From the NCBI GenBank assembly GCA_025057205.1, contig JANWXR010000004.1, positions 1-34,830 on the forward strand: a stretch of 34,830 nucleotides of DNA, given 5' to 3'. The DNA is from Anaerolineales bacterium. Its GTDB lineage: Bacteria > Chloroflexota > Anaerolineae > Anaerolineales > UBA6663. The notes under the pieces were generated by a model. That model was not told where the DNA came from. It searched no databases and worked only from the letters and a program-made list of their open reading frames with translations. Positions 5,578 to 28,565 of this stretch are shown one piece after another (the first letter of the stretch is position 1; every line of letters begins with the position of its first letter). A program made the position numbers and the translations under genes.

Positions 5578-5770
5578 ACCGCAGAGCGCGCCGAGTGCGT
5601 GGAGATATGACAATAAAGAACGCTGCGCTCTCGTAACTGCTCAGCTGTCCTGATTTATCCGCAGATTACGTAGCTTTTCGCAGAGGCAATCTGTGACCAT
5701 CTGTGACATCTGTGGATTCTTTTCAACGGCTGGAAGCCGTTGCCTGAGCAGTTACGCGCTCTCTTCGGTT
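5578..5770. repeat. Nonamer-periodic palindromic REP-like element interrupted by a MITE
   Basis: ACCGCAGAG CGCGCCGAG TGCGTGGAG ... CTGCGCTCTC[insert]GCGCTCTCTTCGGT; the arms are imperfect inverted repeats. Confidence 0.65.
5633..5755. mobile_element. MITE-A copy 1 (123 bp; 12-bp TIR; 8-bp TSD)
   Basis: GTAACTGCTCAG (5633-5644) ... CTGAGCAGTTAC (5744-5755) is a perfect inverted repeat, flanked by direct repeat GCGCTCTC (5625-5632 and 5756-5763). Internal palindromes ATCCGCAGAT..ATCTGTGGAT and CAACGGC-TGGAA-GCCGTTG. Confidence 0.9.
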
Positions 5771-5794
5771 AGCCCCTCGCCGTAGACTCAAGGA

Positions 5795-5800
5795 TATAAT
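5795..5800 (+). promoter_or_regulatory. -10 box, probable leaderless promoter of the mshA-like gene
   Basis: TATAAT followed by 8 nt and then ATG 5809; no SD in between. Confidence 0.55.
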
Positions 5801-5808
5801 TCCCCGCG

Positions 5809-7173
5809 ATGCGCATCGCCATGCTTTCTTATCACACCTGTCCGCTGGCCACGCTCGGCGGCAAAGACACCGGCGGCATGAACGTCTACGTGCGCGACCT
5901 GACGCGCGAACTGGGACGGCGCGGCCTGCGCGTGGACGTGTTCACCCGCTCTCAGGACGAGCATCAGCCGCACGTCAAAGAAGAGCTGGGCTACGGCAAC
6001 CGCGTCATCCACATCCCGGCCGGGCCGGAAGTGCCGCTGCCCAGAGAAATCCTCTACCAGCACGTTCCCGAGTTCGTCGGCGGCGTGCGCGAGTTTGCGC
6101 GTGCCAACGACCTGCACTACGACGTGATCCACGCCCACTATTGGCTCTCCGGCGTGGCGGCCCGCAGCTTGCGTGAGACTTGGCACATCCCGTTCGTGCT
6201 GATGTTCCATACCCTCGGCCACATGAAGAACCGCGTTGCACAAAGCGAGGCCGAACGCGAGGGCGCGCTGCGCGTGCAGGTGGAGACCGAGCTGATGGCC
6301 CAGGCCGACCGCCTGATTGCAGCGACACCGGCAGAGATTGCACAAATGCAATGGCTCTACGGCGCCGACATCAGCCGCGCCGTCGTCATCCCGCCCGGCG
6401 TGGATTTGAACCTCTTTTATCCGCGCCCGGCCAACGTGGCGAAGCAACGCATCGGCGTGGACCCCGACCGCATCCTGCTCCTCTTCGTCGGGCGCATCGA
6501 GCCGCTCAAGGGCCTGGAGACTCTGCTGCGCGCGCTGGCCGTTCTCAAGGAGCGCGGCGTCTGCCAGTGCAACCAGCTGGCGCTCTCCATCATCGGCGGC
6601 GACCCGGAGGAAGATGCCGCCCAGCGCAATGCAGAGATGGAGCGCATCAAGGCCCTGCGCAGCCGGCTCGGCCTGGAGGGGATGGTGACCTTCCTGGGCA
6701 AACAGGATCAGGACACGCTACCCGATTACTATTCCGCCGCCGACGCCGTCGTGATGCCGTCGCACTACGAGTCCTTCGGGATGGTGGCGCTGGAGGCGAT
6801 GGCCTGCGGTACACCCGTCATCGCCTCCGAAGTGGGCGGGTTGGCCTTCCTGGTCAAGGACGGCGAGACAGGTTTCCACGTGCCGGACCGCGACCCGGAG
6901 GCGCTGGCCGACCGCATCTGCGACATCATCACCGACCCGCTGCTGCGCGCGAAACTGGGCGGCCAGGCGGCGGAGTACGCGCGCAGTTACTGCTGGCCGC
7001 TCATCGCCGATAAAATCATCGCAGTTTATCGCGAACTACACACAGGCCGTGCACCGGCCTGGCTGGAGCGAAGAGGCAAGGCGCACGATGGTGCCGCCCT
7101 TACCAGCGAAACAGCCTCCGCATCACCCGATCCCACACCGCGTCCGGCAGGAAACGGCGCAGCAGTATATTGA
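5809..7173 (+). CDS. mshA: MshA-like GT4 glycosyltransferase (D-inositol-3-phosphate glycosyltransferase family)
   Basis: MRIAMLSYHTCPLATLGGKDTGGMNVYV, HAHYWLSG, MFHTLG, FVGRIEPLKG and PSHYESFGMVALEAMACG match the MshA subfamily; substrate not proven. Confidence 0.8.
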   Translation: MRIAMLSYHTCPLATLGGKDTGGMNVYVRDLTRELGRRGLRVDVFTRSQDEHQPHVKEELGYGNRVIHIPAGPEVPLPREILYQHVPEFVGGVREFARANDLHYDVIHAHYWLSGVAARSLRETWHIPFVLMFHTLGHMKNRVAQSEAEREGALRVQVETELMAQADRLIAATPAEIAQMQWLYGADISRAVVIPPGVDLNLFYPRPANVAKQRIGVDPDRILLLFVGRIEPLKGLETLLRALAVLKERGVCQCNQLALSIIGGDPEEDAAQRNAEMERIKALRSRLGLEGMVTFLGKQDQDTLPDYYSAADAVVMPSHYESFGMVALEAMACGTPVIASEVGGLAFLVKDGETGFHVPDRDPEALADRICDIITDPLLRAKLGGQAAEYARSYCWPLIADKIIAVYRELHTGRAPAWLERRGKAHDGAALTSETASASPDPTPRPAGNGAAVY

Positions 7174-7939
7174 GCGTGGTGCGGAAGGGGAACGAATAGC
7201 GGGCGCGCGGATGCGGGGTCATGAGGATTCGCTCAACGAGCGCCGCGAACTGCTCCGGCGGGAATCCCTCGCGAGCGGTGGCCTCTGCCAGCTGCGCGTA
7301 GCGCGCAATCAGCCCGCGATATGCTTCCGCCCTGCCGCCCGTGTACAGCGCCCGCGCGTTCTGCTCGCCGGCCTTCCAGATGGCCGTCGGGCTGCCGCCC
7401 GGCTCGATCACCACCACTTTCACTCCAAACGGCGCCAGCTCCAGCCGTAGCGAATCGCTCAGGGCCTCCAAAGCAAACTTGCTGGCGTGGTAGGCGCCCG
7501 TCACCGGGAACGCCATCCGCCCGCCCATGCTCGAAACATTGAGGATAGTTCCGCGCGCCGCCTTGAGCAGCGGTAGCAGCGCCTGCGTCACCGCCACCTG
7601 CGCGACGACGTTGATCTCCAGCTGCGCGCGCAGGTCGGCCAGCGGCAGGATTTCGAGCGGGCCGGGGTAGGCCGTGCCGGCGTTGTTGAGCAGCGCGTCG
7701 AGGGACGGCGCGAGCGCAGCCGCCGTGCGGCCCAGCTCCGCCACCTGCGCGTCGTCGGTGATGGCGCAGACCAGCGGCTCCAGCGTGATGTTTTTCTGCA
7801 ACGCTTCGGCGCGCAGGCTCTCTGCATCGAAGGCTTTGCGCACTACGGCCAGAACGCGCCAGCCGCGCTGCGCGAGATGAAGCGCCGTCGCTCGCCCAAA
7901 CCCTGAAGAACAACCCGTAATCAGAATCGTTCCGGTCAT
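7100..7939 (-). CDS. Short-chain dehydrogenase/reductase (17beta-HSD-like SDR)
   Basis: TGCSSGFG, NNAG, catalytic S..YHASK, VIEPG. Confidence 0.95.
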   Translation of the reverse strand: MTGTILITGCSSGFGRATALHLAQRGWRVLAVVRKAFDAESLRAEALQKNITLEPLVCAITDDAQVAELGRTAAALAPSLDALLNNAGTAYPGPLEILPLADLRAQLEINVVAQVAVTQALLPLLKAARGTILNVSSMGGRMAFPVTGAYHASKFALEALSDSLRLELAPFGVKVVVIEPGGSPTAIWKAGEQNARALYTGGRAEAYRGLIARYAQLAEATAREGFPPEQFAALVERILMTPHPRARYSFPFRTTLNILLRRFLPDAVWDRVMRRLFRW

Positions 7940-7963
7940 TCGCCCTCATTGCCTCCGTTTCCC

Positions 7964-27501: not shown

Positions 27502-27536
27502 TAGACCTCCAGAGCCGCGAATCCCTACTGGTTCAA

Positions 27537-27615
27537 GAGCCTCCTGCGGAAATAAGGCTCGGGCGACGGTATTGCCGTTGCCCTAACCGGGAAAAACTCA
27601 CTTTCGAAGGAGCCC
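27537..27615. mobile_element. Degenerate MITE-like element with an internal REP-like hairpin
   Basis: GAGCCTCCTGCGGAAATAAG versus reverse-complemented right end GGGCTCCTTCGAAAGTGAG; internal GGGCGACGGTATTGCCGTTGCCCTA resembles GTAG-type REP hairpins. No clear TSD. Confidence 0.45.
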
Positions 27616-27625
27616 AGCTTGACCC

Positions 27626-28372
27626 TTACCTTGCCTTGCCCTGCGCGGCGACGGCAGCAGCGGCTTTCGCCACGGTCTCCGGGTCGCCCAGGTAGTAGCT
27701 CTTGAGCGGCTTCAATTCGGCATCCAACTCGTATACCAGTGGGATGCCGGTGGGGATGTTGAGTTCGACGATGTCCTGGCTGGAGATGTTGTCCAGGTAT
27801 TTGACCAGCGCGCGCAGGCTGTTGCCGTGTGCGGCGATGACCACGCGCTTGCCGCTCTTGACCACCGGCGCGATGACGTTGAGCCAGTAGGGGATCATGC
27901 GGGCGACCGTGTCCTTGAGCGACTCGGTGCACGGCAGTTCCTCGGGCGCGAGGCCGGCGTAGCGGCGGTCGAAGCGTGGGTGGCGCTCGTCGTCCGGCTC
28001 CAGCGGGGGCGGGGGCACATCGTAGCTGCGTCGCCAGACTTTCACCTGCGCCTCGCCGAACTTCGCCGCCATCTCCGCCTTGTTCAGCCCCTGAAGCGCG
28101 CCGTAGTGGCGTTCGTTCAACTGCCAGGCCTTGGTCACCGGCAGCCAGTCGAGGTCCATCTCCTCCAGCACCAGGTTGAGGGTATGGATGGCGCGCTTGA
28201 GGACGGAGGTGAAGGCAACATCGAAGGTGTAGCCCTCCTCCTTGAGGAGCCTGCCGCTGTTTATCGCCTCCTGGCGGCCCAGCTCGGTCAGGCCGACGTC
28301 CGTCCAGCCGGTGAAGCGATTCTCCAGATTCCAGGTGCTTTGCCCATGACGAATCAAGACGAGTTTGTACAT
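27626..28372 (-). CDS. gpmA: 2,3-bisphosphoglycerate-dependent phosphoglycerate mutase
   Basis: [67 protein letters not shown] before ATG 28372. Confidence 0.98.
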
Positions 28373-28408
28373 GCATTCTCCTTGAATGTGCAACTGAATA
28401 CACAACAT

Positions 28409-28528
28409 GACTCCAGTGCAAAAACTATGATCTCACCGCGAAGCCGCGAAGGGCGCAAAGGCTTTGCTCCTGTTTTCCTTAGCGTTCTTGGCGTCTTCGC
28501 GGTTCACATGGACTTTTTTCAGTAGAAC
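28409..28528. mobile_element. Degenerate MITE-C carrying a nonamer palindromic REP-like element
   Basis: Left GACTCCAGTGCAAAAACT versus reverse-complemented right GTTCTACTGAAAAAAGT; flanks CACAACAT/CGCAACAT (7 of 8). Cargo ACCGCGAAG CCGCGAAG GGCGCAAAG ... CTTAGCGTT CTTGGCGT CTTCGCGGT (28435-28503). Confidence 0.55.
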
Positions 28529-28565
28529 CGCAACATGCAATACGGAATGCGCAGCGCTTAGCCCC

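Follow-up and report, generated by a model that had tools for sequence, protein, structure and literature searches.

What are the short, hairpin-forming sequences bounded by inverted repeats that lie between the genes of this 34,830-nucleotide Anaerolineales contig (JANWXR010000004.1, whose whole length is here called the window), and what moves them? An earlier note, made from the sequence of the window, had described up to six such elements, each with an unrelated palindrome inside a shell of terminal inverted repeats (TIRs), and had proposed that they are mutually targeting elements mobilised in trans. Our analysis finds five miniature inverted-repeat transposable elements (MITEs) in the window, with four types of shell: two copies of S1 and a single copy each of S2, RA and S4. 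The best explanation, to which we give a probability of about 0.8, is that DDE transposases move these five non-coding elements in trans, recognising nothing but their short TIRs.

The window is contig C444 of a genome bin (G000) of 2.48 Mb in 715 contigs, with 62.7% G+C and a completeness of 64%. The six stretches flagged in the note were searched with blastn against the whole of this genome, and families were defined from alignments of the copies together with their flanks. Matches numbered 69 for the stretch at 5633, 218 for that at 16287, 24 for that at 16411 and 134 for that at 28409. The RA element lies outside the range that the note had covered and was first seen in a k-mer scan. The five MITEs and their target-site duplications (TSDs) are listed below; none is assigned a strand, fold z-scores compare the DNA fold with that of shuffled sequence, and REP-B denotes a module resembling repetitive extragenic palindromes (REPs).

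3332..3431 (100 bp), RA MITE with a REP-B palindrome as its interior; TIR GGGAGCATTTC / GGGTGCATTTC; 35 loci, 29 of them aligned; fold z -2.8.
3324-3331 and 3432-3439, TSD of the RA MITE, AGAAAGAC, 8/8.
5633..5755 (123 bp), S1 MITE; TIR GTAACTGCTCAG, perfect at 12/12; fold z -5.5.
5625-5632 and 5756-5763, TSD flanking 5633..5755, GCGCTCTC, 8/8.
16287..16376 (90 bp), S2 MITE with a REP-B palindrome as its interior; TIR GTGTGCACGC; fold z -2.5.
16279-16286 and 16377-16384, TSD flanking 16287..16376, CCTCGTTG, 8/8.
16411..16533, old and decayed S1 MITE of subfamily B; 85-87% identity over 99 bases to copies with intact S1 TIRs; fold z -2.6.
16403-16410 and 16534-16541, TSD flanking 16411..16533, GGATGCGA / GGATGCAA, 7/8.
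28409..28529 (121 bp), S4 MITE of type a; TIR GACTCCAGTGCAAAAAC / GGTTCTACTGAAAAAAG; 102 loci, 38 of them aligned; fold z -2.8.
28403-28408 and 28531-28536, TSD of the S4 MITE, CAACAT, 6/6, the right copy shifted by one extra G.

Every confirmed element is intergenic. The MITEs are non-coding, multi-copy and 90-123 bp in size, the TIRs measure 12-17 bp in all four shells, and none of the elements matched an Rfam family. The hairpin interiors reported in the note were borne out by fold z-scores from -2.5 to -5.5 in all five; that of the S1 copy at 5633..5755 consists of a CACAGAT-repeat hairpin and a second small hairpin. The stretch at 16411 was considered as a separate kind of element and this was ruled out, as it aligns with subfamily B of the family at 5633, although its TIRs have decayed to 9/12 and 8/12 of the consensus. 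The S2 family (TIR GTGTGCACGCAAA, 8-bp TSD) occupies 144 loci in G000, with both ends present in 37.

The frequency of near-perfect TSDs in paired copies was compared genome-wide with that in shuffled left-right pairings. Such duplications flank 46 of 78 paired copies of S4 (6.7% when shuffled), 16 of 26 of S1 (2.5%), 51 of 101 of S2 (0.5%) and 16 of 27 of RA (2.1%). The note's statement that the TSD is usually 8 bp is correct for S1, S2 and RA but not for the family at 28409, since S4 duplicates 6 bp. A 7-bp S4 duplication (CANNNGT) was also considered and rejected, because the right terminus ends in CC and full insertion sequences (ISs) show 6 bp.

The S4 family is bounded by the TIRs GACTCCACTGMAAAAAC and GGTTCTACTGAAAAAAG. 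When up to 2 mismatches are allowed, G000 contains 176 copies of its 14-base terminus, which leads into at least four different interiors: a CGCGAAG-type hairpin (type a, hairpin A), a palindrome centred on GCCACCATATATGGCG (type b), a CGCAGAG-type hairpin (type c, hairpin C) and the 3' tail of an insertion sequence, seen on contig C713 (type d). Clustering of interiors by a 70% mutual-coverage rule (n=222) placed 41 S4 copies in type a, 8 in type b and about 12 in type c, the remainder being composites. In the window copy at 28409..28529 the interior is the REP-like hairpin A (28433-28506).

The same termini bound a transposase gene in related genomes. The congener G003 has the S4 terminus at 13 places (four left ends and nine right), at a distance of 110-310 bp from the end of a contig, and there it runs on into the start or end of a transposase gene. 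When 151 genomes of the order were searched with an N-terminal fragment of this transposase, complete open reading frames (ORFs) of 535-576 aa, bounded by S4 TIRs, were recovered in four genomes. Two of the proteins score over the cut-off for PF13751 (DDE_Tnp_1_6; 29.2 and 37.7 bits) and one of the two for PF05598 (DUF772; 28.8 bits), while the best NCBIfam match, near full length, is IS1182 (108.5 and 98.1 bits). One genome per species was scanned, which gave 119 relatives; 80 were kept, nearly all from Anaerolineales or Chloroflexota bins, and 36 of these 80 loci carry both TIRs. The elements measure 1.74-1.9 kb (exceptions being one of 1.6 kb and two of 2.05 kb) and typically have 52 bp before the ORF and 24 bp after it.

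The target sites of the two agree in form. Of the 36 IS1182-like elements, 17 are flanked by a 6-bp TSD with no more than one mismatch; it follows the pattern A-N-N-N-N-T, the first base being A in 16 of the 17 and the sixth T in all 17. The logo of the 46 S4 MITE sites is the palindrome CAYNNRTG, in which the duplicated AYNNRT stands between an outer C and an outer G (C at -1 in 38, A at 1 in 41, T at 6 in 36 and G at +1 in 30 sites). Long stretches of G000 between paired TIRs were examined as possible autonomous copies and dismissed, as they hold unrelated genes between separate MITEs, e.g. a MazG-like gene on C577; this genome holds remnants of IS1182-like elements only. Near-identical IS1182-like copies (79-83% amino acid identity; 64% for L088) were also seen at loci L048-L050, L061, L063 and L088, on short contigs binned to Thermodesulfovibrionales, Acidithiobacillus, Moranbacteria, Lentisphaera, Deltaproteobacteria and Phaeodactylibacter, which points to either a mis-binned repeat contig or horizontal spread.

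For S1, the partner belongs to the IS66 family. A single IS66-type transposase was found in G000, on contig C310, where PF03050 (DDE_Tnp_IS66) scores 117.6 bits, over its cut-off, and the ORF begins 4 bp inside the terminus GTAACTACTCAG. Relatives contain five complete IS66-family elements of 1505-1578 bp, each with a single ORF of 487-502 aa and the S1 TIR pair (GTAACTNCTCAG on all five). The S1 partner fits the traits of this family in ISfinder, namely a TIR starting GTAA and an 8-bp TSD, the latter present in 16 of 26 S1 MITE copies but in just 1 of the 5 full elements. Only the outer 12-14 bases are shared between the S1 MITEs and these IS66-like elements.

Being small and non-coding, the elements must be mobilised in trans, as the note had proposed. 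S4 and S1 carry the exact termini of transposase-encoding insertion sequences in relatives (IS1182-like and IS66-family genes, respectively, enclosed by those TIRs), so that their probable mobilising enzymes are DDE transposases, which were among the candidates named in the note; no partner was found for S2 and RA. The S2 and RA termini have G-GTGCA in common, both shells have an 8-bp TSD, and their interiors are built from the same module, REP-B (GCCGCAYCCTGAGCGGA...TCGAAGGRGCGGC), in opposite orientation relative to the shell; they may be diverged sister families. A blastn count of REP-B loci in G000 (n=145) placed 113 in S2, 24 in RA, 2 near both and 6 in decayed shells, and since all of them lie within intact or decayed shells, REP-B is not a free element in this genome. 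The S2 shell encloses interiors of 33, 46, 55 or 66 bp, longer ones of 110-198 bp with extra, sometimes inverted, REP-B units, and one (five copies) that is not REP-like. A 20-bp optional insert of RA was considered as a free mini-element and rejected, as all 7 of its exact occurrences lie within RA elements.

Interiors of this kind raise the alternative that the elements are REP or REPIN palindromes spread by a single-strand Y1 transposase (a REP-associated tyrosine transposase, RAYT, or IS200-like enzyme), with the inverted termini forming part of a REP doublet. The interiors are indeed REP-like, hairpin A is found by itself and 3' of genes in relatives, many genomes of the clade encode a Y1 transposase (31 of 41 over cut-off), and longer palindromes enclosing REPs have been described in print, including in one Chloroflexi species, in the passages of PMC3733652 cited here. 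However, fixed 6- or 8-bp TSDs and termini identical to those of DDE insertion sequences are not REPIN traits. Furthermore, no Y1 gene (PF01797) was detected in the 64% complete G000 or in G003, and six Y1 loci from relatives, compared with the hairpin-A motif, lack it and carry other hairpins. Hairpin A bears no GTAG/CGTC terminal tag; an internal GTAG was noticed by eye in some REP-B copies. We therefore regard this alternative as very unlikely, and the RAYT that the note had listed as a candidate mobilising gene was not borne out.

If instead the elements are moved by DDE transposases, it must be asked whether the interiors came from the insertion sequences themselves. An alternative reading holds that shell and interior were never independent, every family being an internal-deletion derivative of an insertion sequence variant that already carried the palindrome. 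Type d of S4, whose interior is an insertion sequence 3' tail, is what this reading predicts, as is a remnant on C93 in which the first ~98 bases of a type-a element are joined without a break to what is left of a transposase C-terminus, now decayed; both look like plain deletion derivatives. A single interior is kept per family (41 S4 copies share one), and neither REP-B nor the type-b interior was seen outside its own shells, an S4 end being present in all 21 type-b loci. Against it, only the outer 12-20 bases of the MITEs resemble an insertion sequence and the interiors are unrelated palindromes. The canonical IS1182-like element has short flanks and no hairpin, which makes the MITE interiors foreign to it: the 36 full-length copies have 24-bp tails (a few longer) and lack hairpin A. 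The S1 MITEs likewise match IS66-like elements over only ~12-14 terminal bases.

Hairpin A is moreover found without any S4 end. In four further relatives (G002, G004, G024 and G025, the last from a different family of the same order) an S4 query matches with its inner part only, and the hairpin stood alone between unrelated flanks in the 20 loci examined. Among 92 hairpin-A loci in G000, 29 have both S4 ends, 36 have one and 27 have none, about ten of these last being clearly free-standing by eye. S4 ends are missing from 6 of 20 hairpin-C loci, and 20 of 54 loci of the S1 hairpin lack recognisable TIRs, although inspection by eye shows that some of these are decayed (such as 16411) or have been split by S4 insertions. 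Taken together, we consider it clearly improbable that all families arose by internal deletion. The modular plan described in the note survives insofar as the S4 and S2 shells hold several interiors and hairpin A stands alone, but the families are fixed units and REP-B and type b are confined to their shells; likewise, its proviso that shell and cargo might always be fixed deletion derivatives applies to type d and the C93 remnant and not to the free-standing hairpin A. 'Shell plus cargo' is thus a fair account of how these families are built and probably of how they arose, but each has afterwards spread as a fixed unit.

Two side observations concern hairpin A. Contig C517 of G000 (200-480) carries a tandem array of four hairpin-A units, ~80 bp apart and without S4 termini. 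G025, which otherwise holds free hairpin A only, contains a single full-length S4 type-a MITE (C43:7917-8038) that is 88% identical to the window copy and may have arrived through lateral transfer.

Comparison with close relatives provides evidence for movement. At the position of the S4 MITE at 28409, the congener G001 has 4 bases in place of 132 in the window, with the surroundings aligning at 93-94% identity, and the same empty junction was found in contigs of two metagenome studies. These contigs represent an abundant relative ~94-95% identical to the window and not the window's own population, so that the strain-level presence/absence check suggested in the note succeeded between relatives but not within the population. 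Together with the TIRs and TSDs, the empty site supports the note's view of these sequences as small, non-coding mobile elements. At the 378-bp block 16264-16641, G003 has 6 bp, without a clean junction for each element, and G001 has different elements. No clean empty site for RA could be recovered from G001, whose corresponding intergenic sequence is different throughout. G001 does share the S1 copy at 5633, in the orthologous position, and this copy is therefore older than the split between the two genomes. Public runs with the window sequence are labelled hot-spring metagenomes, and no RNA run is listed among them. In runs X1-X3 we observed a low-depth population identical to window 15000-34830 (0-2 differences per ~1 kb) and a second, co-occurring population, ~tenfold deeper and about 92-95% identical to the same segment.

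When repeats are drawn from a metagenome bin, there is a concern that short repeat contigs from several organisms have been pooled by assembly and binning, creating apparent families and chimeras. The median contig of G000 is 929 bp and contigs of less than a kilobase carry many of the copies, a pair of related populations occurs together in metagenomes of the source type, and short insertion sequence contigs are binned to unrelated phyla in public bins. Yet the five elements lie within one 34.8-kb contig among ordinary genes, the S1 copy is kept at an orthologous site in an independent genome, and the families turn up again in G001, G024 and G025, which were assembled independently. An artefact of this sort is thus extremely improbable.

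The note had further taken the elements to target one another. Empty sites were rebuilt by script and checked for spanning another MITE, which was the case for 6 of 46 S4 sites (5 of them in S1), 1 of 16 S1 sites, 1 of 50 S2 sites and 0 of 16 RA sites, with 38 of 3000 random genome positions as the control. The bias of S4 towards S1, which makes up about one eighth of the MITE DNA by arithmetic from copy counts, is marked. It is explained by the arms of the S1 hairpin, which are short arrays of CACAGATG, a match to the S4 target, and the S4 copies nested in S1 have ACAGAT or ATCTGT as their TSD. Overall, the TSD hexamer is repeated within 35 bp at 11 of 46 S4 sites, versus 267 of 5000 random ones. 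Nesting does therefore occur, but it is essentially one-way, from S4 into S1, and follows a sequence-specific target, so that 'mutual' overstates it. Within the window, the S4 copy at 28409 is surrounded by degenerate heptamer-like sequence, and the S1 copy at 16411 is inserted in the following feature, to which no strand is assigned:

16385..16610, degenerate stand-alone hairpin A in reverse orientation, with collinear short matches to S4 copy positions 97-85, 66-50 and 45-37.

This hairpin is free-standing, without flanking S4 termini, is split by the S1 insertion at 16411-16533 and is abutted by the S2 copy.

Arrays of at least three identical hexamers of the AYNNRT class occur at 176 loci, against 40 for the mirror class, whereas the main heptamer families do not match the S4 target. 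We also observed decamer-spaced arrays with CATTCGTG or ATCCGT cores that fit the S4 target consensus (in G000, C7:5888-6010, C13:2906-3070, C244:16930-17180, C111:36688-36870 and C90:3427-3610), often in higher-order tandem units of 50-113 bp. An origin of the target-like arrays as excision footprints was considered and set aside, as the regular 10/14-bp spacing and the higher-order tandem units argue against it. A broader joint reading would have insertion sequence termini repeatedly capturing free REP-like palindromes and thereby founding MITE families, with S1 and the CATTCGTG/ATCCGT decamer arrays serving as CAYNNRTG landing pads in a directed parasite-on-parasite network that steers insertions away from genes. 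We hold this to be a speculative and rather unlikely proposition.

Under the preferred explanation, transposition in trans by DDE enzymes, an IS1182-like transposase would move the S4 MITEs by a 6-bp staggered cut around the AYNNRT of the CAYNNRTG target, and an IS66-family transposase would move the S1 MITEs with 8-bp duplications, while S2 and RA would use one or two other transposases that also give 8-bp duplications. A family would be founded when two insertion sequence ends come to flank a pre-existing palindrome, or, for a few families, by internal deletion of an insertion sequence, and would then be amplified as a fixed unit. The known preference of insertion sequences for sites within or next to REPs, as described in the cited part of PMC1525189, would aid such founding. 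Nesting would have two causes: MITEs would persist nowhere but in intergenic DNA, where repeats already abound, and the arms of the S1 hairpin consist of short arrays of the S4 target.

Several points weigh against this explanation. No intact transposase of either partner type was found in the 64% complete G000, so present-day mobility there is putative, and the IS66 copy on C310 runs into the contig end region. The NCBIfam scores of the S4 partner fall below the IS1182 equivalog cut-off of 270, which is why it is named 'IS1182-like' here. Only one of the five full IS66-like elements has a perfect 8-bp TSD, and no autonomous partner of S2 or RA was found among the ISL3, IS256 and IS1595 loci of the genus or the DDE_Tnp_1 loci of G000. 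The origin of the palindromic interiors, whether by capture, deletion or insertion, is inferred. The 13% nesting rate of S4 may be no higher than that of random insertion into repeat-rich intergenic DNA, the control having been drawn from the whole genome. Many MITE copies, finally, lie on contigs of less than 1 kb in a metagenome bin.

Of the six elements counted in the note, those at 5633, 16287, 16411 and 28409 are real and belong to three families; the two that it had already called weaker, at 18995 and 27537, are unique DNA and a single-copy hairpin, respectively. These and the other repeats of the window, again without an assigned strand, are:

5578..5612, a probable but weakly supported half of a CGCAGAG-type (hairpin C) palindrome adjoining the S1 MITE; repeated 13-mers from 5582; also in G001.
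18995..19125, unique intergenic DNA and not a repeat, between an ABC-transporter ATPase gene and lgt; blastn finds only itself.
27525..27615, single-copy stretch with one hairpin (27561-27583), downstream of a minus-strand phosphatase gene; fold z -2.6.
27474..27499, heptamer array TCAGTCA, 3.7 copies (Tandem Repeats Finder); one of 572 period-7 arrays.
8861-8891, 9596-9652, 9887-9935 and 20694-20755, other period-7 arrays (Tandem Repeats Finder).

By blastn, 18995-19125 has no other copy in G000, and it folds no better than its shuffles (z +1.75); 27525..27615 likewise has no copies there beyond the adjacent heptamer array, and the hairpin at 27561-27583 is probably a terminator and not a transposon. 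The 572 non-overlapping period-7 arrays of G000 span 18.7 kb, with AATCTCC, AATACGC, AAGACTG, AAAGTAG and ACTGATG as dominant units, while periods 5 and 6 account for 28 and 146 arrays. A palindrome of CGTATTG-type heptamers lies at 24554-24599, just 3' of glnS, and related 16-mers occur about ten times in the genome.

Domain searches show that the genes near the flagged stretches are ordinary ones: sigma-54, a response regulator, a deacetylase-like protein, a GT4 glycosyltransferase, Lon, Hsp20, ABC-transporter parts, Lgt, GlnS, a STAND kinase, a histidine phosphatase, AceK, Icd and a P450; Rfam detects three tRNAs only. Some MITEs lie close to these genes. The S1 MITE at 5633..5755 stands 53 bp upstream of the GT4 glycosyltransferase gene, and the S4 MITE at 28409..28529 lies 36 bp upstream of the likely start of the histidine-phosphatase (GpmA-like) gene. 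The RA MITE at 3332-3431 is directly upstream of the sigma-54 gene (1786-3339, minus strand), whose longest ORF has its ATG at 3337-3339, within the RA terminal repeat; the start may have been misannotated, or the gene may draw 5' sequence from the MITE. Two further frames are of note. An 803-aa open frame at 7964-10375 (minus strand) has no Pfam match and contains three of the heptamer arrays (8861-8891, 9596-9652 and 9887-9935); as the arrays lack stop codons, the frame may have run through what are two or three genes, or through non-coding DNA. A 941-aa protein at 24609-27434 (minus strand) combines a Ser/Thr kinase domain with a novel STAND NTPase 1 domain (nSTAND1, 425 bits).

Bacterial MITEs that a parent insertion sequence mobilises in trans, such as RUP, Correia/NEMIS and Nezha, resemble these elements in that they are of similar size, are non-coding, share their TIRs with an insertion sequence and have a fixed TSD, as well as in their tens to hundreds of copies, intergenic sites, hairpins and 'Russian doll' nesting (definitions and named examples in the cited part of PMC3733652). 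Archaeal MITEs with an IS1182-family partner, ISMac2, and nested 'Russian doll' copies are described in the cited part of PMC3852290, where their direct repeats are given as 4 or 0, whereas S4 has a 6-bp TSD and the palindromic CAYNNRTG target. The present families also differ from known MITEs in that one set of S4 termini encloses at least four unrelated interiors and in that the partner is a distant IS1182-like lineage. A literature search did not find a description of MITEs in Anaerolineae, which is weak evidence that none is in print.

BIME-type mosaic elements and palindromes that contain REPs are a second close parallel. In the cited passages of Di Nocera et al. (PMC3733652), GTAG/CGTC REPs are reported within long palindromes in Anabaena variabilis, Thermomicrobium roseum and Halothiobacillus neapolitanus, and 'empty' target palindromes are said not to have been found. 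The likeness is that a REP-like stem-loop lies at the centre of a larger inverted repeat, and the confinement of REP-B to its shells matches; the outer palindromes here are, however, insertion sequence termini with TSDs, and no RAYT link was found. Tobes and Pareja (2006) describe, in the cited part of PMC1525189, a preference of insertion sequences for sites in or beside extragenic palindromes, which is similar to S4 landing in the S1 hairpin and an S1 copy in a hairpin-A remnant, although the host here is itself a MITE and the preference is explained by an 8-bp target repeated in the arms. The window elements, of 90-123 bp with insertion sequence termini and TSDs, come from Chloroflexota and not from cyanobacteria. 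Elhai et al. (2008, Genome Res 18:1484) reportedly described, in the heptamer-rich genome of the cyanobacterium Nostoc punctiforme, small repeats that lie inside heptamer arrays, inside MITEs or within one another; these are said to be 21-27 nt long and to have no known transposase.

The process at work in this genome is most probably ordinary non-autonomous DDE transposition and fits bacterial MITE biology; what is new are the Anaerolineales members, the IS1182-like partner and its target. The four shells, two partner insertion sequences and the 8-bp target provide a repeat library for a poorly studied, uncultured Chloroflexota lineage, which annotators could use for masking and from which presence/absence strain markers could be drawn. 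These repeats fragment assemblies of the lineage (715 contigs with a median of 929 bp here) and lie directly upstream of genes such as rpoN, hsp20 and gpmA-like. An IS1182-like element with a palindromic target and many mini-derivatives could, furthermore, be a tractable system in which to study how MITE families are founded.

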